From Methanoregula sp. (GTDB lineage: Archaea; Halobacteriota; Methanomicrobia; Methanomicrobiales; Methanospirillaceae), in NCBI GenBank assembly GCA_035527915.1, contig DATKZP010000073.1:3073-67072 (forward strand): DNA of 64,000 nucleotides. Reading direction: 5' to 3'. Position 1 is the stretch's first letter, and each line of letters opens with the position of its first letter. A program made the position numbers and the translations under genes. Positions 4,494-21,083 of the stretch are shown here, in pieces. A model generated the notes under the pieces. The model did not search any database. It saw nothing but the letters and a program-made list of their open reading frames with translations, and had not been told where the DNA came from.

Positions 4494-5782
4494 TACTTCT
4501 TCTTTCGCATTACAAGTACATAATACCCGGCGCTAATGCAAATCAGGGTGATAATCCCTAGTGCGGGAAGGACCTGCATAAATCCGTTCGATGCCGGTTT
4601 TGGTTGAACCTGGACCGGTACGATAATTGTGTCGGAGACCTGACTGTTGTCCAGTGCATCACGGTACCTTACCTCGGTACCAAGGGTATAATCCTTTACC
4701 ACCGCTGCATCATCTGCACTCATCTGGTAACGTGCGGTTGCTGTTTTTCCCGGTTTCAGATCACCAAGGTATGCAGTATCATCAGTGCTTTTAAACGGTT
4801 CAACTACTGAAAGCCGTGCCTGGGCATTGTATGCTATGGAAGTGCCAATGTTCTGGTATTCTACCTGAATCACGCTTTGTGATCCCTGCACAACCTGCAC
4901 CGTTTCCGATGTAATAGTGAAACTGATTTTTCCGCCAACAGGAATTCCCAGCGTGTCAGAAGCCGAAGTAACCACATCCCCGTCACGGTTCTCATACACA
5001 ACGACAATGTCAACCGGGTAGGTCTGTTTTTCCGCATCACTGGAGATCGCTACCTTATATCTGCAGGTAACCGTTCCGTTGTGCAGGAAATCCCCGATAA
5101 AAACGCTGCTGTCAATAGGAATTATCGGACTTGCCCCGTTGCGGATTATCTTCACGGTAGCCTTTCTGCCATCTTCAGATCCGGCATTTTTTATCTTCAG
5201 GTTGAGGTATCCCTCGCTCCCAACATTCAGGTTTTCCGGCACGGCTTCAAGAACTTCGATCTTTACCTGAGGCTTGATTTTTATTGTAATGGGGAAGGTC
5301 TCGGTTATTTGTTGGTAATCAGACTGGAGAATATCACTTGCATCCTGGTCTGATGATGCAAGGTAGGTGTACCGGATCGTAAGAGGGATCTGGTATTCCC
5401 CTTCAGTGGCATTGGACAGGATCCTGGTTGCGATTGCTACCGTAACCATAGCCTGACTTTTAATCTCCCCGACACTCTGCAGATCGTTTTTTACAATTAC
5501 CGGAGCGTTCCCGGCAGAAAGTCCAACCATAACCATCTTTGCTGTTGTGGGAAGATCATCTCTGGCGATGGTCCCGGTCATTACGAATTTCAGACGGTCA
5601 ACACCACTATTTTGTACGATCACGTTTATGGTAGCGTCCTGCCCCGGGGTAAACTCGTTGACACCGGATATTGCTGCCGACATTTGGGGGCTTCCACCCA
5701 GATACGTGGTCACACCCATGACCGGCATGCTGCAGCACAACCACAGCACAAGAAAAACGATTATCAATCTGTAATATTTCAT
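4493..5782 (-). CDS. S-layer domain (COG1361-like) exported protein with C-terminal membrane anchor
   Basis: N-terminal signal peptide, repeated Ig-like beta segments (YLGDLKPGKT, EVRYRDALD), C-terminal TM followed by MRKKK. Its stop overlaps the PGI start (TAATG). Confidence 0.75.
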   Translation of the reverse strand: MKYYRLIIVFLVLWLCCSMPVMGVTTYLGGSPQMSAAISGVNEFTPGQDATINVIVQNSGVDRLKFVMTGTIARDDLPTTAKMVMVGLSAGNAPVIVKNDLQSVGEIKSQAMVTVAIATRILSNATEGEYQIPLTIRYTYLASSDQDASDILQSDYQQITETFPITIKIKPQVKIEVLEAVPENLNVGSEGYLNLKIKNAGSEDGRKATVKIIRNGASPIIPIDSSVFIGDFLHNGTVTCRYKVAISSDAEKQTYPVDIVVVYENRDGDVVTSASDTLGIPVGGKISFTITSETVQVVQGSQSVIQVEYQNIGTSIAYNAQARLSVVEPFKSTDDTAYLGDLKPGKTATARYQMSADDAAVVKDYTLGTEVRYRDALDNSQVSDTIIVPVQVQPKPASNGFMQVLPALGIITLICISAGYYVLVMRKKK

Positions 5783-5847: not shown

Positions 5848-6627
5848 ATGAAATTGCCATCAGAATATCCCGTTCGCATTACTGAATGTCTCAAATCACT
5901 CGGTCTGACAAAATATGAGGCACATGTATACACTGCTCTCATTAAAGTTGCCAGTGCTACGGCAAGCGAAATTCATGAGATTTCCGGTGTTCCACGCGCA
6001 TCGGTATACACGGTAATAGATCAACTTCTGGATAAAGAACTCGTGTCTGTATCCCAGTCTGCACCCAAACGGTTTGCTGCCTATTCTCCCGAAGACGCCA
6101 TTACAAAACTGATGGACCATATCGAAATGGATGCAAAATATGCACGTGATACCTTATCGCTGATATACCGGGAACGGTTGAGCCCGGGACGTGAGAGTGA
6201 GGAGCTGATATGGAATATTTATGGCATTGACACTATCAAAAAAAAACTCACCGATCTCATTTCCAGCGCAAAGAACGGGATCAGAATTATCGCTCACCCC
6301 CAGATTTTATCTCCGGATGTGAAACAGAAACTCACCACTATGGCAGATCATCTGGGTGTTGAAATCATCACACCTGCCTGGACGGGAATTATACCGGAAA
6401 AAATGAACGTGTATGTCTTACAGCATCCCGAAATCCCAAAAGAACTCGATAAGGCAAAGGAGATGATGGCAGGTGGTGTCTGTATCATTGATGGTCGTTG
6501 CGTAATGGTGATCGTGGGAGTGGGTGAAGAGGATGCGGTAGCACTGTTTTCAGAATCCGAAGGATTCGTCCGTTTCTTTGTGCGTTATTATGCCCTGATC
6601 TTTGACTGGGCCAAAAAAACCGGATAA
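5848..6627 (+). CDS. TrmB-family transcriptional regulator
   Basis: LGLTKYEAHVY...ASEIHEISGVPRASVYTV...PKRF TrmB HTH, with a C-terminal effector-binding-like domain (IIDGRCV). Confidence 0.88.
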   Translation: MKLPSEYPVRITECLKSLGLTKYEAHVYTALIKVASATASEIHEISGVPRASVYTVIDQLLDKELVSVSQSAPKRFAAYSPEDAITKLMDHIEMDAKYARDTLSLIYRERLSPGRESEELIWNIYGIDTIKKKLTDLISSAKNGIRIIAHPQILSPDVKQKLTTMADHLGVEIITPAWTGIIPEKMNVYVLQHPEIPKELDKAKEMMAGGVCIIDGRCVMVIVGVGEEDAVALFSESEGFVRFFVRYYALIFDWAKKTG

Positions 6628-10018: not shown

Positions 10019-11560
10019 ATGACCACTTCTCCTGACAATCTCGCATTTGACCAGACACGGCTTGATAAAGTACGTGCACTCAGGGATAAAGGAATCCCCA
10101 TTTTCCCATCTTCATTCGATCGCAAGCATACGGTACGCGATCTCAAAACCCGGTACGCGGATATCACCCATGAAAGGAGCGCTGAACAGGTATCCACGGC
10201 GGGGAGAATATATATTGTAAGGAACCACGGCAAAACCCTGTTTGCGGATCTTGGTGACGAAACCGGAAAGATCCAGCTCTATATCCGGAAAAACGATATT
10301 GGGGACGAGCAGTTTGAACTGTTCAACCAGTTCATTGAGCGGGGGGATATCATCGGCGTTACTGGTCATGTATTCCGGACGAAACTAGGTGAGATCACCA
10401 TCTGGGTAGACACGTTCACCCTTCTCTGCAAAGCAGTATGTTCGCTCCCGGAGAAATTCCACGGCCTGACTGATGTTGAAAAGCGCTATCGCCAGAGATA
10501 TGTTGACCTGATCGTTAACGAGGAGAGCCGGCAGATATTCCGGATCCGGAGCCGGGTTATCTCCCTTATCCGAAGGTATCTTGATGATCACGGGTTCCTG
10601 GAATTCGAAACCCCTATCCTCCAGCCAATATATGGCGGGGCAAATGCCCGCCCGTTCACTTCATACCATCACTTCCATGACCAGAAACTGTTCCTCCGGA
10701 TTGCACCCGAGCTGTACCTGAAACGGCTGATTGTCGGGGGATTTGAGAAGGTCTATGAGGTTGCGCGGAATTTCCGCAACGAAGCAGTCGATACCGATCA
10801 TAACCCGGAATTTTCTATGGTGGAAATTTACGGGGCGTACCAGGATTTCGGGGATATGATGAGACTGACTGAAGATATTGTCTCCTCCATTGTCTTTGAA
10901 GTCCATGGAAAATTTGAGATTCCATTCGGGAACACTACTCTGAATTTTGAAAAGCCCTGGAAGAAACTCTCCATGGCGGATGCGGTAAAGGAGTATGCCG
11001 GAATCGACATCTATAGCCACACCGTTGAACAGCTCCGCGAACTCGCAGCGCAGAATAAGCTGGATAACTGGGAAAAATCAAAAACCCAGCGGGAATTCCT
11101 TGTCCAGTTCTTTGAAGGGCTTGTGGAGGAAAAACTCATCCAGCCGACCTTCATTTACGATTACCCGGTTGAGACTTCCCCGCTCGCAAAACGTCACCGC
11201 ACCAAAGAGGGATTTACCGAGAGATTCGAGCTCTTCATTCACGGGATGGAAGTGGGTAACGGTTTTTCGGAGCTGAACGACGCTGTCGACCAGAAAGCAC
11301 GATTCGAAGAGCAGGACGAAAAGCGGCGCCATGGTGATCTGGAAGCCCAGATGATCGATTATGATTTCATCAACGCTCTCGGATATGGTATGCCACCAAC
11401 CGGTGGTGTGGGTATTGGCATCGACCGGCTCTTGATGCTGCTGACAAATAATATTTCGATAAAAGAAGTGATCCTCTTCCCCCAGATGAAGACATTAAAA
11501 GCGGGCGAGAAAGAGGAAGAGGGTGAAGAACCTTCGCAGGAAAAACAGGGGACAGAATAA
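10019..11560 (+). CDS. lysS: Lysine--tRNA ligase, class II
   Basis: N-terminal OB-fold (GKTLFADL, GEITIW), RYRQRYVDL, YGGANARPF, LRIAPELYLKRL, FRNE, GMPPTGGVGIGIDRL. Confidence 0.97.
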   Translation: MTTSPDNLAFDQTRLDKVRALRDKGIPIFPSSFDRKHTVRDLKTRYADITHERSAEQVSTAGRIYIVRNHGKTLFADLGDETGKIQLYIRKNDIGDEQFELFNQFIERGDIIGVTGHVFRTKLGEITIWVDTFTLLCKAVCSLPEKFHGLTDVEKRYRQRYVDLIVNEESRQIFRIRSRVISLIRRYLDDHGFLEFETPILQPIYGGANARPFTSYHHFHDQKLFLRIAPELYLKRLIVGGFEKVYEVARNFRNEAVDTDHNPEFSMVEIYGAYQDFGDMMRLTEDIVSSIVFEVHGKFEIPFGNTTLNFEKPWKKLSMADAVKEYAGIDIYSHTVEQLRELAAQNKLDNWEKSKTQREFLVQFFEGLVEEKLIQPTFIYDYPVETSPLAKRHRTKEGFTERFELFIHGMEVGNGFSELNDAVDQKARFEEQDEKRRHGDLEAQMIDYDFINALGYGMPPTGGVGIGIDRLLMLLTNNISIKEVILFPQMKTLKAGEKEEEGEEPSQEKQGTE

Positions 11561-11576
11561 GTCCCTCCCTTATATC

Positions 11577-13079
11577 TCACACTTTTTTCACGGTCACTTT
11601 CCAGTCTTCAAGCAGGACAAACTCAGGATCAAAGTTACAGGTATCGCAGACCACTTTCGGATACTGGACAACTGTACGGTAAAACACTACGTCGCCCGGG
11701 TCCGGAACGAGCGGGAGATCGACATCCTTCTGGATAATATACCGGTACGGGTCGAGACTGCTGGCATAGTATGCTTTGAACTGGTGCCGCTCGTCATCCG
11801 TTGCATCGAACGAGTATTCGGCCATCTCGGCCACTGTCACGTCATTGGGAATCCAGCCATAGCCCGGGATATAATACTCGGCCCAGAAATGAGCGCCCGC
11901 ATTGCCGGAGATCATCTGGAAGCCGCCGATGGCCCGCGCCGGGATGCCGAGCGAGCGGCAGAGGGCGGCAAAGTATATGCTCTGCGTCCCGCAGTCGCCA
12001 AACCCGGTGTTAAGGACATAGACCGATTCCGGTATGCCAGCCGCATCAAGCCTCGAGTGCGAGATGTGGCTGTAGGGCATTTCAATGACGTGCCAGTAGA
12101 TCTTCTCTGCCTGCAGGTACGGGTTGGTCTCGTTCCCCACGATTTCCTGTGCTTTCGCCTTCATCTCCGGTGTAAGAGCGATGTTTCTGCTGGAGCGGGT
12201 ATATTTTTTATATTCGGGATCGCTCGTGTTGTATCTCCCGACCTTTGCGGGATCGATTGTGAACCGCTGTTCGTACTGGGTATAGCGGAACTGTGTGGTG
12301 AGATTGAGGAAATCGCCGGTCACGCCCTCAAGCGGAATCTCGAAATACGCGAGCCCGAGGTCAGCACCCATGCCGGACTGTTCTTTGATGTACTCTGCCG
12401 GTGCCACCGAGATTATGGTGACATCCCGCTGCGATTCCGTCTCTACGGGAAGCGGGAACCAGAGGCGGAGGGTGCCGGTCTTCGGGAGCAGGTCGATCGG
12501 GATAATGAGCACTTCTGTACCTTCCCACGTGACCGGATTAACATAATTCCCTGCTCCTTCATCCGCGGGTGCGAATGTGAGGTATTTCAACTGGTCATAT
12601 AAGGGCGTTTCACCCAGGGCAGCAGTCCACTGGCGCATCAGGTCCGGGTTGTGGAACCTGATATTGTGGATGGTGTCAGTGTAGTACCAAACGGTGCCGT
12701 CACTCTCAATGCACTGGCTCTGGTCACAGGGGAGCCAGCCGGCTTTCCGTTCAGCAGGTACATCCGGGAACGCCTCATCAATTGCGGAAACGATCTCCGA
12801 CTCGTTAAAGATGAATTCATATGTTATCCTACCGGCAACAGATGCCTTGTTAAAAGCTTTCTTTTCGCCAGCCGCGTTGCCCTCGGCCTTGTACTGATTA
12901 TATGCTTCTACATACAGCTTTTCAGCGGCATGTAGGTTGTTGTTTAAAAACTCGCTTTCCGCCTGAGTGTAGAGAGTGTCACCTTGCGAGGCGGGATAGG
13001 TCATCTGCGGGGAGGTACAGCCTGCTGCAAGAATGGCAGCAAGCATGAGGAGGATGGCAATCAGAGTAATTTGTTTCAT
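11577..13079 (-). CDS. Lipoprotein with transglutaminase-like (Cys-His-Asp) domain
   Basis: Lipobox LAAGC, then GDCGTQS...CRSLGIPAR (Cys), HFWAEYY (His) and GWIPND (Asp). Confidence 0.85.
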   Translation of the reverse strand: MKQITLIAILLMLAAILAAGCTSPQMTYPASQGDTLYTQAESEFLNNNLHAAEKLYVEAYNQYKAEGNAAGEKKAFNKASVAGRITYEFIFNESEIVSAIDEAFPDVPAERKAGWLPCDQSQCIESDGTVWYYTDTIHNIRFHNPDLMRQWTAALGETPLYDQLKYLTFAPADEGAGNYVNPVTWEGTEVLIIPIDLLPKTGTLRLWFPLPVETESQRDVTIISVAPAEYIKEQSGMGADLGLAYFEIPLEGVTGDFLNLTTQFRYTQYEQRFTIDPAKVGRYNTSDPEYKKYTRSSRNIALTPEMKAKAQEIVGNETNPYLQAEKIYWHVIEMPYSHISHSRLDAAGIPESVYVLNTGFGDCGTQSIYFAALCRSLGIPARAIGGFQMISGNAGAHFWAEYYIPGYGWIPNDVTVAEMAEYSFDATDDERHQFKAYYASSLDPYRYIIQKDVDLPLVPDPGDVVFYRTVVQYPKVVCDTCNFDPEFVLLEDWKVTVKKV

Positions 13080-13181
13080 GGATACACCCGGATATTATGA
13101 TAGATAAGTGACGGTAGTGACATTTCATTAAGGTTGGGATATGGTTTTTTGGCCTGCAAAACGGATCGCACTCCTTAATTA

Positions 13182-13579
13182 CGGGTGCTGGCCGAAGTCC
13201 TGCTCAGTTTCCGGGGCCTGATGGATTACCTTGCCGGGCTGAAGATGAAAACCAGCTATCAGGAGCGGTGGGTATTAACAACCTGATGTACATCACGAGG
13301 ACCCGCTCGCCGGTAGCGGCTATGGACGTGCTGCTCCGGTTCAACGAACACAACCTGCACTCGGAACTCGTAAAGCAGGACGTCCTGATCCTGACCGGCG
13401 CTGAGGACCATTTCATCCTGCTTAAGATGCATTACAAGCAGGTGAACGCCCTGAAAAACGCCCGGTCGGTTACGGCCCGGATCTTCACACGCGAAGAGCA
13501 CAGTGAGAACCACTGCCAAGTAGGGAACACCGGGCTTGCCCTCTAGGTCCTGCTGGAGTGGATCGAAGAAAAGTCGTGA
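13182..13579 (+). pseudogene. Remnant of an alpha/beta-hydrolase gene (C-terminal part only; frameshift plus premature stop)
   Basis: Translation gives ...DVLILTGAEDHF...ENHCQVGNTGLAL*VLLEWIEEKS*: acid and His motifs, an in-frame TAG at 13544-13546 and the natural end at 13579. An apparent 1-nt deletion near 13271 separates ...YQERW from GINNL. No N-terminal half was found upstream. Confidence 0.7.
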
Positions 13580-13797
13580 AGCGGGCATTACACTGGGAGA
13601 ATATGGGAGACTGTGAGGTACCTGATCTCACAGGACATTCCCGTTAATCATGGGTGCAAAACGAAAATCTTTACCTGTCACAGACCACCACACATTCTTT
13701 ACTAATAAGGTGCAGGCACTACCTGCTCTGCCATATTGGCAATCCGTGACGGCCATTCATAAAACAGTACCGGCAATATCAGTGCCTGCCGGAGGTT

Positions 13798-15606
13798 ATG
13801 ATCCGTATGCAAAAAGAGCCGCAGTCGAAAGCTTGCAGGTGGCTGCCCTGCTCCATTATCACGTTCGCCATTGTGCTTATCACCCTTGCTGCCATTGTCC
13901 TTATCGCTATATCTGGTACAGTCCTGCCTGCGAACGGGATCGCATCCCTTTCCGGCACGGTGACCTGCGACAGCAAGTGCGGGCAGGGGCCAATCTACGT
14001 CATCGCCATTGCACAGGAAAACGCAGGCAGGTACCGGTTCATCGAAACAACAGTACCGGTTTATACTGCATCGGAAGTTGCCGGTTATGCAAAACTGACG
14101 GGGCCGGGCCTCTACCATATCACCGGCCTTAAAAACGGGAACTATACCGTATACGCGTGGCAGGACAAAAACGGGAATGGCGGGATCGAACATCTTAACT
14201 ATGCAGAACCAACCGGCTGGTACCAGACGCCTGACCACCTCGGGCCGGTACCGGTGGATGCAACCACCGATGCACGGGGAATCGATATCCGTCTCATCCA
14301 ATCCCATGCGTACCCGGCCGGGGAGCGGTCGGTAACCCGGGGAGAGGGCGGGGGAACGATCAGACAGGTCAGGAACTTCACGGTGCTGCACCTGTACGGC
14401 AATCCCGAAGAACGGGCGTATGCCTTCGGGTACCTTACCGGCCCGCAGGTCATGGACTTCCTCGACTTTGTAGTCCTTGAAAACTTCGCCGGTTCGACTG
14501 AATGGTACGAGCAAAAGTATATCCCCTATCTAAGGAGCAATTTCTCCGAGTACCGGCAGTACGACAGCGAGGTTGAGGAATTCCTCGCAGGCATGCGGGA
14601 TTCCGGAACCGACATGCAGGTCCGGTGGCTCAACCGCACGATAACAGCAGATGATATCTACGCTATCAATAGCTACTACTTCGAGGAGATCTACCGCGGC
14701 ATCCCGCCGCAGGGGAACCGGGAGGAGAATCAACGGATATCCTGCTCGAGCGCGGTCGTCTGGGGCAACATTACAAAGAACCCGGAACTGAACGGTGGCA
14801 TTATCCACGGCAAGAATATGGACGGCGAGAACGACCTGCGCAAGGTTACCGTAAACAGCCTCCTCATTATCGCAATCGAGCCGGAGAAGGGCAGCGGGGA
14901 AAAACGTGTTGTATCTGTTGACTGGCCGGGCTTCATCGGGACTTTCAATCCGATGAACGAGGACGGGATCTACCTTGCGCCCCATGCAGCAGGAACTCTC
15001 CCTGACTATAGCGCGACTGACCATACCGATTACCCGCTCATGTACAGGCCGGTGATCCTGCAGGCGTCCTCCACGGACGAGGCACTCGATCTCTGGCACC
15101 AGGCTGGCGGCACGCTGTCTTCAGGATTCAGTACCGCAATCTCCCAGCCCGTACAAACACGGAGCGGGTATCCCCCCTCGGTGACGCTGGAGAGCGATGT
15201 CTGGGGCGATGCTATCCGGCTGCCGGGTGCGACATGGCCGGACAACCCGGAGATGATCTTCACCGTCAACACGTTCTATGCGTACGAGGGTGTGAACCCA
15301 GAGGCGGTCTCGGCCCTAAAAACATACCATGACGCTGTATATCCGACGGATTACCGGTACCGGGCTATGGCGGACAGGGCCAACCAGTACATCGCGGACA
15401 GGGGCAGCATTGGCACCCCGGAGATGATCGGCCTGATGCGGGCGGCTTCCACGTCAAAAGAGTACCAGGGCCAGACGGAGTACAGCTTCATCGCGTATCC
15501 CGACCTGCGGGAGTTTGCCCTTGCACGGGAAGACCTGCAGAAAAAGAGCCTCGATGCGTCTTTCGCGCAGTACGAGCGGTTCACGTTCGATGATGTGTTT
15601 GCCTGA
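13798..15606 (+). CDS. Exported/membrane-anchored Ntn-hydrolase (peptidase C45 / acyl-CoA:6-APA acyltransferase-like) with N-terminal beta-sandwich domain
   Basis: N-terminal hydrophobic segment and a DKNGNG Ca-loop-like motif. LHLYGNPEERAYAFG pro-domain, then SCSSAVVW (candidate nucleophile Cys), HGKNMD and WPGFIG...MNEDG. Confidence 0.72.
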   Translation: MIRMQKEPQSKACRWLPCSIITFAIVLITLAAIVLIAISGTVLPANGIASLSGTVTCDSKCGQGPIYVIAIAQENAGRYRFIETTVPVYTASEVAGYAKLTGPGLYHITGLKNGNYTVYAWQDKNGNGGIEHLNYAEPTGWYQTPDHLGPVPVDATTDARGIDIRLIQSHAYPAGERSVTRGEGGGTIRQVRNFTVLHLYGNPEERAYAFGYLTGPQVMDFLDFVVLENFAGSTEWYEQKYIPYLRSNFSEYRQYDSEVEEFLAGMRDSGTDMQVRWLNRTITADDIYAINSYYFEEIYRGIPPQGNREENQRISCSSAVVWGNITKNPELNGGIIHGKNMDGENDLRKVTVNSLLIIAIEPEKGSGEKRVVSVDWPGFIGTFNPMNEDGIYLAPHAAGTLPDYSATDHTDYPLMYRPVILQASSTDEALDLWHQAGGTLSSGFSTAISQPVQTRSGYPPSVTLESDVWGDAIRLPGATWPDNPEMIFTVNTFYAYEGVNPEAVSALKTYHDAVYPTDYRYRAMADRANQYIADRGSIGTPEMIGLMRAASTSKEYQGQTEYSFIAYPDLREFALAREDLQKKSLDASFAQYERFTFDDVFA

Positions 15607-15886
15607 TCAATATGTGGAGGTGCCCGTACCTGCGACCCCCCTACAGGAGTCGCGGGGATACACTCAAGGTATGCAGAAGAGAACCCCATATACCCAGAGA
15701 GATGCGGACGTAGATCCTCACATCCAGTCGTTAAAAGAGAATGCCGACAGCAAACAGGACAATTTAGGAAATCATAACTAGTTCGAATCAAAATCACACT
15801 TCATAGCATAACCTGACAAATAATCCCGGACTTCGCAGGGACTGCAGGCCTCTCAGGAGACCCATACAGGAAAAGAGGTAGTTGTT

Positions 15887-17299
15887 ATGAAATGGAAAAT
15901 TGCAGGACTTCTTCTGGTATTCCTTATCTGTGCTGCCGGCTGCGTTACGTCGCCCCCGCCGGCGGAAAGCAGTTCACAGGCCGTCGCTGCCGGCACACCG
16001 GTACCGCTTTCTTCGGCCGATGCAGCGGTATCGGAGAGACTTGACGAATACATGACGGCGCTTGCCGCTGCTGGTCAGTTCAGCGGGGCCGTGCTGGTGG
16101 CACGGGGCGGGACCGTGCTCCTCTCGAAAGGATACGGCATGGCGAACTACGAGTTCTCTGTACCCAACATGCCGCAGACCGTATTTCCCATCGGCTCGAA
16201 CACCAAACAGTTCACCGCGGCCGGCATCATGAAACTGCAGGAGCAGGGGAAACTGACCATCACCGACCCGGTCTCGTTGTATATACCCGGTGCCCCGCGG
16301 TGGAAGGACATACGGATCTACCACCTCCTGAACCATACATCAGGCATCCCGTCTGAGGGCGGGTTCCTGCTCACCGACCCTGCCGATATCGCACTTCCCG
16401 AACTCGTGAAACGGTTTGCTAACCTTCCTCTCACCTTCGAACCCGGTAAAGGGTATACCTATTCCAACAACGGCTACATCACGTTAAGCTACATCATCGA
16501 GCAGGCATCGGGTATGCCCTTCGATGAGTACCTGCGGGAGAACATCTTCCTGCCGCTGGGTTTGACCAGCACCGGGCAGGACAATGCCCGTGACGTTTTT
16601 GCCAACCGTGCATCCGGGTATACCACGATGGACGGGAAACACATCCACTACGATCTCCAGAATATCTACAACTCCTGGGGAGCCGGGTCGCTCCACTCAA
16701 CGACGGAAGACCTCTTCTTATGGGAGCGGGCATTCCATACCCCGGGTGCGATCCTTTCTTCTCAGTCTACCGATGCAATGGCCAAAAACGGATACGGGAT
16801 TGTACAGGCCACGTTTGGGAACCGCACTGTCATCGGCCATGGCGGGCGCAACTTCGGGTTCATCTCGTACACGCTCTATTATCCGGATGAGGACGTGAGC
16901 ATCATGTTTTTGTCAAACCATGACAGGACTCCCATGGCAACCCTCCCAAAAGACCTCTCGGCGATCGTTTTTGACGAGCCGTATTCCCTGCCGCAGAAGA
17001 TCGAGCGCAGGGCAGTACCGCTGACCGCTGAAGCACTCGGGGAATATGCCGGGACCTACGCGCCTGAGTGGGAGAGGACATGGACCTTTACCGTATTTCC
17101 TGATGGTACCCGCCTGTTTTACATATCCGCCGTGCCGCATGAGACGGTTGAGCTCTTCTATGAGGGCAATGATACATTCTTCGTAACGCCGGAGTCGAAA
17201 GACGCGTTCATATTCACGCGGGACGACAGAGGGAAAGTCGACGGGTTGATGATGTATACGCTGGAAGGCGTGAATGACAAGGCCGTGAAGGTGGGATAA
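15887..17299 (+). CDS. Lipoprotein serine hydrolase, AmpC/S12 family, with C-terminal DUF3471-like domain
   Basis: Lipobox AAGC, SxxK (GSNTKQF), YxN (YSNNGY), HGG, and a C-terminal LGEYAGTY...FF domain. Confidence 0.88.
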   Translation: MKWKIAGLLLVFLICAAGCVTSPPPAESSSQAVAAGTPVPLSSADAAVSERLDEYMTALAAAGQFSGAVLVARGGTVLLSKGYGMANYEFSVPNMPQTVFPIGSNTKQFTAAGIMKLQEQGKLTITDPVSLYIPGAPRWKDIRIYHLLNHTSGIPSEGGFLLTDPADIALPELVKRFANLPLTFEPGKGYTYSNNGYITLSYIIEQASGMPFDEYLRENIFLPLGLTSTGQDNARDVFANRASGYTTMDGKHIHYDLQNIYNSWGAGSLHSTTEDLFLWERAFHTPGAILSSQSTDAMAKNGYGIVQATFGNRTVIGHGGRNFGFISYTLYYPDEDVSIMFLSNHDRTPMATLPKDLSAIVFDEPYSLPQKIERRAVPLTAEALGEYAGTYAPEWERTWTFTVFPDGTRLFYISAVPHETVELFYEGNDTFFVTPESKDAFIFTRDDRGKVDGLMMYTLEGVNDKAVKVG

Positions 17300-17474
17300 A
17301 ACCAGAACAGGGTATGAATACCGGGCAGATGAATCGGCCATAACCCGGGACGAAGGAGTGTATCCTCACCCCGGTACTTCTGGAGGAGATCACCTCCATC
17401 CGGGCGACTGATGTGGGACTGCGTCATGCACTGTGAGTTCCACCCGGGGATAGCGAGAAACGGGGCAGAAAGAA

Positions 17475-17507
17475 GGGGGTTATTTCACCCCGGGGGCTAT
17501 AACCCCC
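17475..17507. repeat. 9-bp perfect inverted repeat (GGGGGTTAT / ATAACCCCC) between convergent genes
   Basis: Arms at 17475-17483 and 17499-17507, with a CCCCGGGG palindrome in the loop. Could be a terminator or a REP-like element. Confidence 0.5.
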
Positions 17508-17546
17508 GCAGGGTTGGTCCGCGATCGGGGGGATTCCCATACCAAC

Positions 17547-19136
17547 TCAATAATACGTGTAGATTGCTTCGGCGATTCTGCCGAGGTCGTTTCCTATAGC
17601 CATCATGTCATCGATAGTTTCAAAAGGCACATTGTTCACGTAGATGGCAAAGACCAGCCGCTTCCCGTGTGAGGTATCGACATACCCGGCAAGGGATTTG
17701 GCAAGCAGGATGCCGCGGTCATTTAGGGGGTCGTATGTACCGGTAGTCCCGGTCTTTGCATGCACCCTGCCGCGTGCCGGGCAGTCAGGGCTGCAGGACG
17801 TGGCAAGAGACCCGTCAACCCCGAGGATGGGGAGTGCATTCATATATTTCTCTACATACGGGCGTGTGGTCATCAGGGTCAGGAGCTCTGCAGCGGACCG
17901 GGGGGAGATGCGGTCTTCGTTCGCACCGCCTTCACCATCTCCAAGGGAAACGCCGCGTGTGTCGAGACCGAGGGAACTGAGGATCTTTCCCTCTTCCAGC
18001 ATGCCGTCGTAGAAGTCAGTTTTGTTGGATGCGACGGCAATCAGGGAGACATAGGTATCGGCATGGAGGTTCTGGGAGACCTTGAGCGTCAGTTTCACGT
18101 CCTCAAAGAAGGGGGGGGAGATGAGTTCTGCAACCTTCCGGGCATCGGTATAGGCTGCCGGTGCCGGGAGTATTGCCGAGGGATTATCCCCGGTTGGTAC
18201 AGCGGTCACGCGGATCCCCTGCCGGATTAATGCCTCGATGAAGAGCGTGCGGGCAAATGCGGCCGGTGTTTTTACCGTAAAGGTCTGGTTGACCGGTCCT
18301 GCATCGGCAGCTATTGTACCTTGCACGACAAGCGTTCCTTGTGGGTTTTCCGTTATAGAAACTGCAAGTGGAGATCCTGCATTACCGGTCAAGGCCTTAT
18401 TGACAAGATGGTACGCAGCAGTCTGCGGTTGCATCGCAAGCGACGGTACCGCACCGGGATCTGCAGGGGTTATGATGACATCGATCTGGTCATCGTTGAT
18501 GATGATCGGGGAGATTACAAACGTTTTCCCGAGATCGGTTGTCGTGAACAGCCGGTCATCAATGGCTACATCGGATACTTCCATGATACCGGCTCCTTTC
18601 ACCTGGGAAGCAAGATTGTCAAGGCCGGCCAAGGGATTGGTTGGCGCGAGGACCGCCCCGCCCAGTGCATTTGCGTCACCGTGATCGATGTTGGTATACG
18701 CAATCGTATCATCGGGGAGCGTGCGCCCGCCCATATTCGGATCGCCGCTTGCGACAAGAACCAGATTCCCGTCGAGTTTCCCGCTGCCATCGACCGATCC
18801 CATCACGTAGACCGGGGTTCTGAACCGGTAATCCGGGCCAAGAGCCTCAAGGGCTGCTGCTGATGAGAAGAGTTTTGTCGTAGATCCTGGCACATACATC
18901 TGGTCGGCATTGCTCTCGTAGATTGTTTTGCCGGTTGCCGGATCAGCAACGATAATCCCCCAGCTGGCATGCGTATACCGGGGAGCACTCGTAATTTCGG
19001 AGAGGTTGCTGTCGAATGATGAGGATTCAGAGGGTGTCGCAGGAGAACTCGTGCATCCCGCCGCGATCAGGAGCACGGCAAGAAAGGAGACCATGATAAG
19101 CACAGGGCAGGACCGGACCAAAGGGTATGATGGCAT
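17547..19136 (-). CDS. dacB: Lipoprotein D-Ala-D-Ala carboxypeptidase/endopeptidase (PBP4, peptidase S13)
   Basis: Lipobox IAAGC, SxxK (PGSTTKLF), LGPDYRFRT, GNLVLVASGDP, SxN (KVSQN) and KTG (AKTGT). Confidence 0.9.
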   Translation of the reverse strand: MPSYPLVRSCPVLIMVSFLAVLLIAAGCTSSPATPSESSSFDSNLSEITSAPRYTHASWGIIVADPATGKTIYESNADQMYVPGSTTKLFSSAAALEALGPDYRFRTPVYVMGSVDGSGKLDGNLVLVASGDPNMGGRTLPDDTIAYTNIDHGDANALGGAVLAPTNPLAGLDNLASQVKGAGIMEVSDVAIDDRLFTTTDLGKTFVISPIIINDDQIDVIITPADPGAVPSLAMQPQTAAYHLVNKALTGNAGSPLAVSITENPQGTLVVQGTIAADAGPVNQTFTVKTPAAFARTLFIEALIRQGIRVTAVPTGDNPSAILPAPAAYTDARKVAELISPPFFEDVKLTLKVSQNLHADTYVSLIAVASNKTDFYDGMLEEGKILSSLGLDTRGVSLGDGEGGANEDRISPRSAAELLTLMTTRPYVEKYMNALPILGVDGSLATSCSPDCPARGRVHAKTGTTGTYDPLNDRGILLAKSLAGYVDTSHGKRLVFAIYVNNVPFETIDDMMAIGNDLGRIAEAIYTYY

Positions 19137-19340
19137 GTGAATCTAACAGTGTTTCTGATCTGATTCCTGATAAACAGATAGATATACCCGTGGAAAAACG
19201 GCAAAACCGGTCGCAGATCCCCGCAACAGGAACGAAATCTATTTCGAACTGCCTTACTATAACAAACATTCAGGACAAAAAACGGCCTGTACAAGGCCGG
19301 GAAACTCCCGTTCAAAATACCAGGTTCCCGTGTGTTAGCC

Positions 19341-20846
19341 ATGCTGAACCCAAAAGAGACATTAAGTGAGGACGACGTAACAAAAGGGCTCTCGTTTATC
19401 ATAAAGGACGGGCTCGCCACGCAGGCCATGGTCACGTTAACAAGCGGGATCTTCCTTGTTGCATTCGGCCTCCAGCTTGGCGCATCCAATACAGTAATCG
19501 GGCTGCTTGCGGCAATCCCCCCACTTGCCGAGCTGATCCAGATGCCAGCCATCTCGGTTGTTGAAAATGTCCGCAACCGGCGACTGGTCTGCGTTGGCGC
19601 TTCGATTGTCGCACGGCTTTTCTGGATTGTCATTGCCCTCATCCCGTTCCTCTTTGGCCCGGCTGCCGCCGTGCCCGTCCTGATCATATCGCTTGTCCTG
19701 TATGGGAGCATCTCTGCCATCTCCCACTGCAGCTGGAATTCCTGGATGCGTGACTTTGTGCCTCAGGAGATCCTGGGCAGCTTCTTCTCCCGCCGCATGT
19801 CACTGTCTCTTGCCCTTGGGATCGTATTGTCCCTTGCTGCCAGCGCCCTTATCGATTTCATCCAGAGGAATCCAGCCTATCCCCCGGACACTGCCTACTC
19901 GGTCATCTTCCTTGGCGGTTTTGTGGCCGGGCTGATGGGGATCTGGTATATGTCAAGGATTCCTGAACCCCAGATGACGGTAACCGCAAAAGTCCCGCCA
20001 CTTGACCAGATCAGGTCTGCATTCCGCGATGAAAACTTCTCCCGGCTGATCGCCTTTTTAGGGGCATGGAACTTTGCCGTCAACCTCGCGGCTCCGTTTT
20101 TTACTGTCTACCTGCTTGTCATGCTCGACTACGATATTACGGTTGTCATTGTCCTTGCCGTCCTCAGCCAGATCGCAAGTGTGCTCTCCTATGGCATGTG
20201 GGGCCGGATTGCAGACCGGTTCAGCAACAAGTCCGTCCTGCGGGTCTCGGGCCCGCTCTTTATGATCTGCATCCTTGGCTGGACGTTTACGACAATGCCC
20301 ACCCGGCACCTGCTGACCATCCCGCTCCTGATCACCCTGCACATCCTGATGGGAGTGTCTACGGCGGGGGTCACGCTCGCATCGGCAAACATCGGGCTCA
20401 AGCTTGCACCTCACGGCGGCGCAACCGCTTATCTTGCTACGATCAACATCACAAACTCCCTCGCAGCCGGCATTGCACCGGTCATTGGAGGGATGTTTGT
20501 CGATTCGTTCAAGGCGACCGAACTCTCGCTCACCCTTAACTGGAGAAGCGCGGAAACAGCCTTTGCCATCCAGACGCTGGACTTCCAGTACTGGGACTTT
20601 TTCTTTGTTTTTGCGTTTCTGATTGGGATCTACTCAATCCACCGTCTCGCGTATGTCAAAGAGGCCGGGGAGGTGGAGGAACGGCTTGTCGTCCAGGAGC
20701 TGATAGCACAGGTCAGTCGTGAGATGCGCAACCTTTCTACCGTCGGTGGGCTGCGGTACATGCTCAGGTTCCCGATGCTGAGGAGCATCGAAACAGGAAA
20801 GGATGAAAAACGTTCAGAAGATAACGAAGACCCGGTGCAGAAATGA
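19341..20846 (+). CDS. MFS transporter
   Basis: About 12 hydrophobic segments and the WGRIADRFSNK MFS loop motif. Confidence 0.85.
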   Translation: MLNPKETLSEDDVTKGLSFIIKDGLATQAMVTLTSGIFLVAFGLQLGASNTVIGLLAAIPPLAELIQMPAISVVENVRNRRLVCVGASIVARLFWIVIALIPFLFGPAAAVPVLIISLVLYGSISAISHCSWNSWMRDFVPQEILGSFFSRRMSLSLALGIVLSLAASALIDFIQRNPAYPPDTAYSVIFLGGFVAGLMGIWYMSRIPEPQMTVTAKVPPLDQIRSAFRDENFSRLIAFLGAWNFAVNLAAPFFTVYLLVMLDYDITVVIVLAVLSQIASVLSYGMWGRIADRFSNKSVLRVSGPLFMICILGWTFTTMPTRHLLTIPLLITLHILMGVSTAGVTLASANIGLKLAPHGGATAYLATINITNSLAAGIAPVIGGMFVDSFKATELSLTLNWRSAETAFAIQTLDFQYWDFFFVFAFLIGIYSIHRLAYVKEAGEVEERLVVQELIAQVSREMRNLSTVGGLRYMLRFPMLRSIETGKDEKRSEDNEDPVQK

Positions 20847-21083
20847 CCGTCCTTTTTCCCGGCAGTTCCCGTCCCGGGCAGGTAATTCTCACATATCAGG
20901 AAAAATCGTTCCAGGCTCACAATGACAATTGATGGATATCGCGGGGTTTTGCCTGATCAAAATGCGGCACTGAATTTGAGGTTCCATGGCGCGAGGCGAT
21001 GGCTGAAACCTCATTAAACGTTTCCCTTCCATGCAACCGAAGTGCAGGAAACGCAAAGGGTATTTACTCATCTTTCCAAGTTA

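Follow-up and report, generated by a model that had tools for sequence, protein, structure and literature searches.

Predicted surface-tethered hydrolases around a PBP4-type peptidase form a recurrent, modular gene neighbourhood in Methanoregula and other Methanomicrobiales

Introduction

Archaeal action on bacterial wall peptides has already been published. Pab87 of Pyrococcus abyssi, reported in 2009, is a D-stereospecific amino- and carboxypeptidase that acts on a muropeptide pentapeptide by removing its terminal D-Ala; scavenging of bacterial wall debris was the role suggested by its authors (PMC2651629). In 2025, haloarchaeal secreted modular peptidoglycan hydrolases were reported to kill a bacterium, the archaeal killers including M23 enzymes (Strock et al. 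2025, PMC12352652). Peptidoglycan-type walls of the archaea themselves are confined to Methanobacteria and Methanopyri (PMC11111885). Here we analyse a 64,000-nucleotide stretch of a Methanoregula sp. genome (assembly GCA_035527915.1, contig DATKZP010000073.1; hereafter the window, whose positions are used throughout), in which positions 11577–19136 hold four intact long open reading frames (ORFs), A to D, and one gene remnant (Table 1). A is a transglutaminase-fold Cys enzyme, B a Cys-type N-terminal nucleophile (Ntn) hydrolase, C an S12 serine peptidase and D an S13 peptidase of the PBP4 type. We find that this neighbourhood is real and recurs beside S13 genes of related methanogens, and that it is modular, with no fixed four-gene system.

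Results

Enzymes C and D

An earlier reading of this DNA, made from its letters alone (the sequence-only reading), had described four intact exported hydrolases with readable catalytic motifs and had named them as a transglutaminase-like enzyme, a C45 Ntn-hydrolase, an AmpC-like S12 enzyme and a DacB/PBP4-like S13 peptidase. All four ORFs proved intact and carry export signals, and each keeps its catalytic motifs, which do not vary among aligned homologues; the transglutaminase-like, S12 and S13 assignments and the C45-like fold were also upheld, and only the AmpC-like label of C was lost. Pairwise dN/dS against orthologues in related loci was 0.18–0.23 for each of the four genes, which indicates that all of them are maintained by selection.

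D matched PF02113 over profile positions 3–425 of 444 (E = 1e-68, 232.6 bits), above the curated Pfam cut-off, and passed the PBP4 equivalog TIGR00666 with 189.1 bits against a cut-off of 107.8. It aligned over its full length, with the motifs in register, with B. subtilis PBP4a (1w5d) and the Actinomadura R39 DD-peptidase (2wke), and the seven residues of its motifs S84-T-T-K87, S353-Q-N355 and K460-T-G (Ser84 codon at 18885–18887) did not vary among 26 homologues, which represent four methanogen orders. Judged by family, D is thus a predicted PBP4-type S13 DD-carboxypeptidase/endopeptidase, sharing the equivalog match, the full-length alignment and the three motifs with E. coli DacB, PBP4a and R39 (MEROPS S13). 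It departs from these enzymes in that its host lacks murein, that it has a predicted lipoprotein signal followed by a Ser/Pro/Thr linker, and that its clade consists mostly of methanogens, of four orders.

C matched PF00144 (E = 6e-59, 200 bits) and has the motifs S104-N-T-K, Y192-S-N and H318-G-G, which are invariant in homologue alignments; its tail resembles DUF3471 at 24.7 bits, under the cut-off of 29.3. The nearest solved sequences were Pab87 (2qmi, 106 bits), the alkaline D-peptidase 4y7p, LACTB, Flp and ClbP, with D-peptidases scoring 94–106 bits and AmpC structures 50–55 bits. C shares the PF00144 superfamily, SxxK and YxN with class C beta-lactamases, but its third motif is HGG and not KTG, and it scored 75.8 bits against the 415 demanded by the class C equivalog NF033085; we therefore rejected its identification as an AmpC-like beta-lactamase. 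By sequence, C would be an S12 peptidase of the D-stereospecific kind, nearer to Pab87 and the alkaline D-peptidase than to AmpC. A class-C-like enzyme of Methanosarcina has been placed nearer to DD-peptidases and hydrolyses nitrocefin weakly (PMC7697635). Like Pab87, C is archaeal, has no self substrate and combines an S12 domain bearing SxxK, YxN and HxG with an additional C-terminal domain. Pab87, however, is a cytoplasmic self-compartmentalising octamer with a C-terminal lipocalin domain and is encoded beside peptide transporters, whereas C has a lipobox signal, predicting a surface tether, a weak DUF3471 tail, and S13, Ntn and transglutaminase-fold enzymes as neighbours.

Enzymes A and B

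A matched PF01841 Transglut_core (E = 1e-20, 74.4 bits against a cut-off of 23), and its AlphaFold model (mean predicted local distance difference test, pLDDT, 91.6) comprises a short helical N-terminal region, a beta-sandwich and a transglutaminase-fold core whose Cys-His-Asp triad (C362, H396 and D412; Cys codon at 11994–11996) is invariant in 34 homologues. The best fold match in the Protein Data Bank (PDB) was 3isr of Cytophaga hutchinsonii, a putative Cys protease that is itself uncharacterised (TM-score 0.69 on target) and shares with A both the catalytic core and the beta-sandwich. The family of A differs in being a lineage-specific, multi-copy group: its best 120 relatives are all from Methanomicrobiales. 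Should A resemble the pseudomurein endoisopeptidases PeiW and PeiP (MEROPS C71), these would offer an example of a transglutaminase fold that cuts wall isopeptide bonds.

B had no Pfam match, a PDB sequence search with its profile returned nothing, and it stayed below the cut-off of the C45_proenzyme family NF040521 (55.4 bits against 85, covering profile positions 2–196 of 313), so that fold comparison alone placed it. The AlphaFold model, built from a 39-sequence alignment (pLDDT 90.2), shows a transmembrane helix (residues 16–36), a beta-sandwich (49–201) and then a Cys-Ntn hydrolase domain. The top Foldseek matches were the acyl-CoA:isopenicillin-N acyltransferase structures 2x1c and 2x1d (2x1c, E = 7e-15, TM-score 0.74 on target), and further matches were acid ceramidase, N-acylethanolamine acid amidase (NAAA), bile salt hydrolase and penicillin V acylase. 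Cys316 (codon 14743–14745), invariant in 39 homologues, opens the strand 317–321 behind a low-confidence or disordered loop (305–312). As modelled, B falls within the Cys-Ntn fold (C45/C59/C89 clan), and Cys316 is placed like the nucleophile of a self-cleaving proenzyme. With the C45 acyltransferase and related Cys-Ntn enzymes B shares the alpha-beta-beta-alpha fold, the invariant Cys after a flexible linker and a GxxxE..G N-terminal motif; in contrast to them it is only 10–16% identical in sequence, adds an N-terminal membrane anchor and a beta-sandwich, and is predicted to be extracytoplasmic. The B family is common to Methanomicrobiales (mostly Methanoculleus), Syntrophales, Desulfobacterales and other deltaproteobacterial lineages.

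Several homologues of B are fused to other domains. In the metagenomic protein P0126 a single chain combines a lipobox with both an S12 and a B-type domain, P0208 joins a B-type Ntn domain to a metallo-beta-lactamase (MBL) fold, and P0147 and P0169 join one to an MliC-type lysozyme-inhibitor domain (PF09864).

Export signals

In the translations of A, C and D, a hydrophobic segment runs up to A-A-G-C, and the residues behind it are rich in Ser, Pro and Thr (A, ...ILAAGC-TSPQ; C, ...ICAAGC-VTSPPP; D, ...LIAAGC-TSSPATPSESSS), and the lipobox Cys is Cys20 in A, Cys19 in C and Cys28 in D. The lipobox consensus has L, V or I at −3, A, S, T, V or I at −2, G, A or S at −1 and Cys at +1 (PMC12462473). 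The AAGC signals fit it at −2, −1 and +1 and have Ala instead of L, V or I at −3; the signals and linkers that the sequence-only reading had reported can thus be read, the signals being lipobox-like, and lipidation is predicted. The N-terminal membrane segment proposed for the fourth enzyme corresponds to the helix of B, which the model presents as a signal anchor. None of the remaining ORFs in a crude gene set of the window had such a lipobox behind a signal segment. Related loci show SVGC, LCGC, SAGC and TAGC signals, and xxGC signals of this kind occur on their S12, M23 and S13 genes. If A, C and D are lipidated, all four enzymes would be held beneath the S-layer.

In the related locus L004, the B orthologue, compared over 5050–5196, begins with a lipobox signal that resembles that of C (57% over 35 aa against window 15887–15990) and is unrelated to the N-terminus of B in the window (13798–13960), so the export signal has been swapped between close relatives.

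Recurrence of the neighbourhood

We built profile hidden Markov models (HMMs) from these archaeal sequences and scanned 96 fetched loci. Among 13 distinct S13 contexts of Methanomicrobiales, at least one further S12, C45, M23 or transglutaminase-like gene lay near D in eight; the 19 such genes were all within 4.5 kb of D, and the 76 kb of sequence beyond 8 kb from D contained none. A further 69 S13 loci are more distant and probably for the most part bacterial; the archaeal-built HMMs are less sensitive to distant bacterial versions. An S12 gene was adjacent in four of these loci and the other families in none.

The close relatives illustrate both the recurrence and its variation. The order is D-C-B in L004 (D 79% identical), D-C in L016 (85%), two S12 genes followed by D in L020 (57%) and MFS-D-methyltransferase-A in L003 (83%), with C orthologues (68–84% identity) adjoining D in L004, L016 and L020. 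L006 has MFS-D-LysRS and L007 has D-MFS, whereas in L008 D has no such partner and four unrelated genes separate it from LysRS. More distant loci assemble similar sets from other members: a 2.09-Mb contig (L010) encodes a classic secreted C45 proenzyme, two M23 proteins, an S12 enzyme with DUF3471, an S13 enzyme and an MFS protein; a 3.9-Mb Methanospirillum contig (L012) encodes S12 with DUF3471, M23, S13 and an orthologue of A; and L022 encodes an A-type enzyme, C45, M23 and S13. The S12 proteins of these distant loci are only 23–28% identical to C. The C45 protein of L010 (402 aa, secreted) scored 137 bits, above the C45_proenzyme cut-off of 85 bits that B does not reach. Two different C45 subfamilies occur among the recurring neighbourhoods. 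In L010 both M23 proteins, the S12 and the S13 bear xxGC signals, and the C45 protein has an N-terminal hydrophobic segment that lacks this Cys motif.

Co-location of S13 with S12, C45, M23 or transglutaminase-like genes therefore recurs in at least three Methanomicrobiales lineages, often with non-orthologous members, whereas conservation of the four genes as a set was not found, the sets in relatives being D alone, D with A, D with C, or D with C and B. The outcome that the sequence-only reading had named as refuting it, genes dispersed among relatives and not clustered, was therefore not observed. The S12–B fusion provides independent evidence for a joint action of S12 and B-type enzymes.

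Some related loci hold further genes of interest. Two genes upstream of an S13 homologue in a Methanosarcina metagenome-assembled genome (MAG), with a TPR protein between, lies a 166-aa PASTA protein (L005:5700–6200; PF03793, E = 2.7e-12); PASTA is a muropeptide- and beta-lactam-binding module and is unexpected in an archaeon without murein. Close to the Methanospirillum cluster of L012 are a HepT/MNT-type toxin-antitoxin pair (5872–6515) and a HicB-like antitoxin gene (2687–2881), and an exported MBL-fold protein (AHM/B3-like, 54 bits) is encoded 3.5 kb downstream of it. In L014 (5549–13155) a B homologue directly follows three FemAB-like Acetyltransf_6 genes and precedes a VimE-like sugar deacetylase and polysaccharide synthesis genes, with IS605 and DDE transposases nearby, a context that suggests an envelope-glycan role for some members of the B family. 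L006 is a 372-kb contig from a MAG labelled Chloroflexia, yet it carries a Methanoregula-like MFS-D-LysRS-oxidoreductase order at 70–90% identity, interrupted by numerous frameshifts; the assembly is error-rich, and there is probably a mistake in either the bin label or the contig.

Origins and variability

The sequence-only reading had taken the block for GC-richer than its flanks, in keeping with acquisition. GC content at third codon positions (GC3) is indeed raised in A (0.66), B (0.71), C (0.69) and D (0.61); 37 further ORFs from the window gave 0.54 +/- 0.06 (p = 2e-4 by rank test), corresponding to z-scores of 2.0, 2.9, 2.65 and 1.1. The rise is mild for D, however, and extends into the next two genes, the MFS transporter (2.5) and a Na/H antiporter (2.15), which are conserved neighbours in relatives. 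The best 120 relatives of D (45–100% identity) are nearly all from methanogens, namely Methanoregula, Methanospirillum, Methanoculleus, Methanosarcina, Methanotrichaceae and Methanobacteriaceae, with a few bacterial MAG sequences at 46–50%, and D therefore belongs to an old clade spread across many methanogens and is no fresh import. Recent acquisition of the whole block from bacteria was accordingly rejected for D, as well as for A, whose family is specific to Methanomicrobiales; it may apply to B-C only.

L006 and L008 have neither A nor B-C, and L003 likewise lacks B-C. The interval between D and LysRS is variable, holding nothing in L006, a methyltransferase and A in L003, and the four unrelated genes in L008. 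In L025 a piece of the gene remnant, 77% identical, directly follows the stop codon of D, and B-C is thus an insertion between D and the remnant relative to that locus. Only B-C looks, by sequence comparison, like an insertion or deletion relative to relatives. Synonymous divergence (dS) from L003 across window positions 10019–20846 was uneven, at 0.40 for D, 0.25 for MFS, 2.2 for LysRS and 1.56 for A, the higher values being near saturation and rough; this unevenness points to a mosaic history and suggests that Methanoregula lineages have recently exchanged the segment holding D and MFS.

A strain in one metagenome, X4, shows a strain-level rearrangement of the region: a contig joins position 19201 to 15469 with 27 extra bases, and at 90% identity or more depth falls almost to zero across the greater part of B, C and MFS (14400–17000 and 19175–21000), A and D being present.

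Locus layout and neighbouring genes

Table 1. Hydrolase genes A to D and adjoining features, by position in the window
Feature	Position	Strand	Length	Description
A	11577..13079	-	500 aa	transglutaminase-fold Cys enzyme
alpha/beta hydrolase remnant	13122..13576	+		pseudogene
B	13798..15606	+	602 aa	predicted signal-anchored Cys-Ntn hydrolase
C	15887..17299	+	470 aa	S12 serine peptidase, lipobox
D	17547..19136	-	529 aa	PBP4-type S13 peptidase, lipobox
MFS transporter	19332..20846	+		PF07690, E = 2e-24, divergent from D

The remnant between A and B confirms the decayed alpha/beta hydrolase that had been described there. By tblastn only the C-terminal part, about 150 codons, is left, corresponding to residues ~233–380 of Abhydrolase_1 proteins of 380–395 aa, so that the nucleophile region is gone; a single frameshift lies near 13271 and an in-frame stop at 13544–13546. 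Its 92-aa ORF matched 433 proteins by phmmer, of which the full-length ones (378–393 aa) align at residues ~275–370 and bear Abhydrolase_1/6 domains.

The MFS gene is a kept neighbour of D in close relatives, adjoining it in L003 and L006 at 88–90% identity, and its membership of the functional group is uncertain. It matched no named subfamily, no solved transporter relative and no efflux family, and its identification as an AmpG-like muropeptide permease was rejected for want of a subfamily or structure match, so that an uptake role was dropped as evidence. The MFS genes beside the S13 genes of L007 (11660–13096; EmrB/DHA2-like, 211 bits) and L010 (11659–12894; Bcr/DHA1-like) are of the drug-efflux type and are not homologous to that of the window.

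Scans of the window for tRNA genes and Rfam families returned nothing, and repeats around the block were short and at chance level, none longer than 26 nt, with no island borders. Metagenome contigs from soil and sediment carry the same DNA. Among named genomes, Methanoregula MAGs come nearest and share the flanks (oxidoreductase, LysRS and MFS) at 76–90% protein identity. The host is therefore a Methanoregula-type methanogen, in agreement with the Methanomicrobiales-type host deduced earlier.

Discussion

To our knowledge, the known substrates of S13 and M23 enzymes are essentially only murein peptides. Together with the D-peptide branch to which C belongs within S12, the muropeptide activity of Pab87 and the PASTA neighbour in Methanosarcina, this suggests to us bacterial wall peptide as the common denominator of the neighbourhood. 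The reading that we tentatively prefer, at somewhat less than even probability, is that A to D form a surface toolkit for processing small D-amino-acid peptides of bacterial murein origin, serving salvage more than killing. In such a scheme, tethered amide and peptide hydrolases would work between the cytoplasmic membrane and the S-layer on muropeptides shed by growing or dead neighbours. D would cut D-Ala-D-Ala ends and D-Ala-diamino-acid cross-links, C would take D-residues off peptide termini, and B, activated by self-cleavage before Cys316, and A would open non-alpha or N-acyl amide bonds that ordinary peptidases spare; in related genomes the M23 proteins and the classic C45 enzyme may join in. 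The purpose would be salvage or clearing of wall peptides, as a source of nitrogen or carbon (alanine, for example), and would be likelier than lysis of neighbours. Substrates, order of steps and physiological purpose are all put forward here by inference. Use of D-alanine through alanine racemase is described for Methanococcus maripaludis in a passage of PMC4902934 that cites Moore and Leigh 2005.

Neither the cluster in the window nor the gene tables of its relatives contained a glycan-cleaving enzyme or an N-acetylmuramoyl-L-alanine (MurNAc-L-Ala) amidase, and no wall-binding domain (LysM, SH3, PG_binding or similar) was detected in A to D at E <= 0.01. Since the enzymes appear tethered and lack both wall-binding domains and glycan-cleaving partners, their architecture favours soluble muropeptides over intact sacculi as substrates and hence salvage or clearing over lysis. 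The surface toolkit acting on neighbours' wall peptides that the sequence-only reading had imagined is partly supported, although killing, scavenging and action on beta-lactams cannot be separated from sequence; the lytic form of antagonism that it had also entertained is disfavoured by this same architecture. We found no paper mentioning PBP4-type genes in Methanoregula or in methanogens, and Methanomicrobiales were not among the organisms implicated by a study of methanogenic enrichments fed with peptidoglycan.

A number of observations weigh against a wall-peptide toolkit. D stands alone in five of the 13 Methanomicrobiales contexts, B homologues occur alone in L013 and L015, and cultured Methanolinea mesophila has an A homologue without such neighbours. 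The four genes do not form an operon, A and B being divergent, C and D convergent, and D and MFS divergent, and they are split over three to four transcription units of mixed orientation. The locus was not found in any RNA run. In two relatives the MFS genes adjoining D are of the drug-efflux type and lend no support to uptake, and hydrogenotrophic methanogens are not known to us to require exogenous peptides. The M23 proteins of relatives (L010:5692–8246, L012:8510–9559 and L022:2321–3517) keep the HLH zinc motif and lack the canonical HxxxD. They have an HH pair and a QDF context further upstream, and may represent LytM-type domains that are atypical or have no catalytic function. Neither A nor B has a documented murein link, and the fold relatives of B cut acyl amides of lipids, bile salts and penicillins. 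The roles of A and B are the weakest part of the proposal, as their folds indicate only a Cys-nucleophile cleavage of unusual amide bonds.

Antibacterial weaponry against the walls of living neighbours, in competition or predation within consortia, would find a precedent in the archaeal peptidoglycan hydrolases that kill a bacterium (PMC12352652). DD-endopeptidases and M23 enzymes are lytic types, and the interval between D and LysRS, a variable hot spot where B-C, A and further genes have been gained and lost and where a strain-level rearrangement occurs, resembles the patchy occurrence of weapons. The present genes share with those of Strock et al. that they are archaeal, exported and of bacterial wall-hydrolase families, with M23 in related loci, and they raise the same archaeal–bacterial question. 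The proteins of that study, however, combine a catalytic with a wall-binding domain, are secreted, patchy and often plasmid-borne, and two of them kill a bacterium (PMC12352652), whereas A to D have no wall-binding domain, thus falling outside the definition used by Strock et al., seem to be held by a short linker or a transmembrane helix and not released, would address the peptide stem only, and are chromosomal at a conserved position. No lysozyme, amidase or transglycosylase accompanies them, and D, syntenic across the genus within a methanogen-wide clade, is unlike patchy bacteriocin-type genes; we regard a weapon as improbable. We give similarly little credence to a detoxification island, in which D-amino-acid or N-acylated peptide antibiotics, lipopeptides or acyl-amide signals would be destroyed and exported by MFS. 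Such a role accords with the presence of ClbP and other D-specific S12 peptidases among the relatives of C, of acyl-amide hydrolases (penicillin V acylase, NAAA, ceramidase and an acyl-homoserine lactone acylase) among the fold relatives of B, with the EmrB/DHA2-like and Bcr-like transporters beside D in L007 and L010, with the fusions of B-type domains to an MBL fold and an MliC-like domain, and with the weak nitrocefin hydrolysis by the Methanosarcina enzyme (PMC7697635). On the other hand, neither S13/PBP4 nor M23 enzymes are known to inactivate antibiotics, archaea lack the target of beta-lactams (PMC7697635), the MFS of the window matches no efflux family, and the adjacency of MFS genes may be chance.

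The enzymes might instead serve the host's own envelope, in maturation, cross-linking or turnover of its surface proteins or of an unrecognised polymer. This would suit the large multi-copy family of A, restricted to Methanomicrobiales among its best 120 relatives, the synteny of D in Methanoregula and its spread over four methanogen orders with invariant catalytic residues, the purifying selection on all four genes, and the B homologue amid FemAB-like and polysaccharide genes in L014. We nevertheless consider it quite unlikely: we know of no D-Ala-D-Ala-containing polymer in S-layer methanogens, and the accessory genes differ among close relatives, which is unusual for core envelope machinery. 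The restriction of archaeal peptidoglycan-type walls to Methanobacteria and Methanopyri (PMC11111885) also speaks against it. The last explanation, that there is no system and that unrelated exported hydrolases have gathered by chance in a recombination-prone region beside a conserved PBP4-like gene, draws on the three to four mixed-orientation transcription units, the pseudogene remnant in their middle, the variable D-LysRS content, the mosaic synonymous divergence, and the occurrence of B and A elsewhere without partners. For A and B, coincidence in a variable region is possible. As an account of the whole neighbourhood we assign it a low probability, because the same four or five families recur beside S13 with non-orthologous members (S12 at 23–28% identity, two C45 subfamilies), no match to these families lies more than 8 kb from D at the same loci, and an S12–B fusion exists.

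Returning to the wall-peptide toolkit, its strongest form, that Methanomicrobiales own a dedicated modular surface pathway for dismantling murein peptides, with an S13 core and interchangeable S12, Cys-Ntn, M23 and transglutaminase-fold partners, seems doubtful to us. The four enzyme families are routinely annotated in methanogen genomes. What appears new, from sequences and structure models, is the recurrent, modular, surface-tethered neighbourhood centred on S13 in Methanomicrobiales, the natural S12–Ntn fusion and an uncharacterised Ntn family. Genes of this kind would be missed by the screen of Strock et al. because it required at least one cell-wall-binding Pfam domain (PMC12352652), and they would extend archaeal peptidoglycan hydrolases to a class which that screen excluded, namely single-catalytic-domain, membrane-tethered and peptide-stem-specific enzymes. 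The locus also supplies enzymes that can be expressed, including those of the Ntn family shared with Syntrophales and Desulfobacterales, and Methanospirillum and Methanoregula are cultured carriers.

Methanogens of peat and wetland soils live crowded among bacteria and are usually viewed only as consumers of H2, formate and acetate. If a dedicated modular pathway of the kind described above exists, S-layer methanogens would be linked directly, trophically or by remodelling, to bacterial partners, for example syntrophic ones, and the B family would represent a novel type of Ntn amidase that works outside the cytoplasm on amide bonds derived from the wall. A conserved surface toolkit for D-amino-acid wall peptides would imply that methanogens harvest or clear wall debris, remodel the walls of their partners or disarm bacterial peptides, each of which would alter models of archaeal–bacterial interaction in methanogenic consortia.

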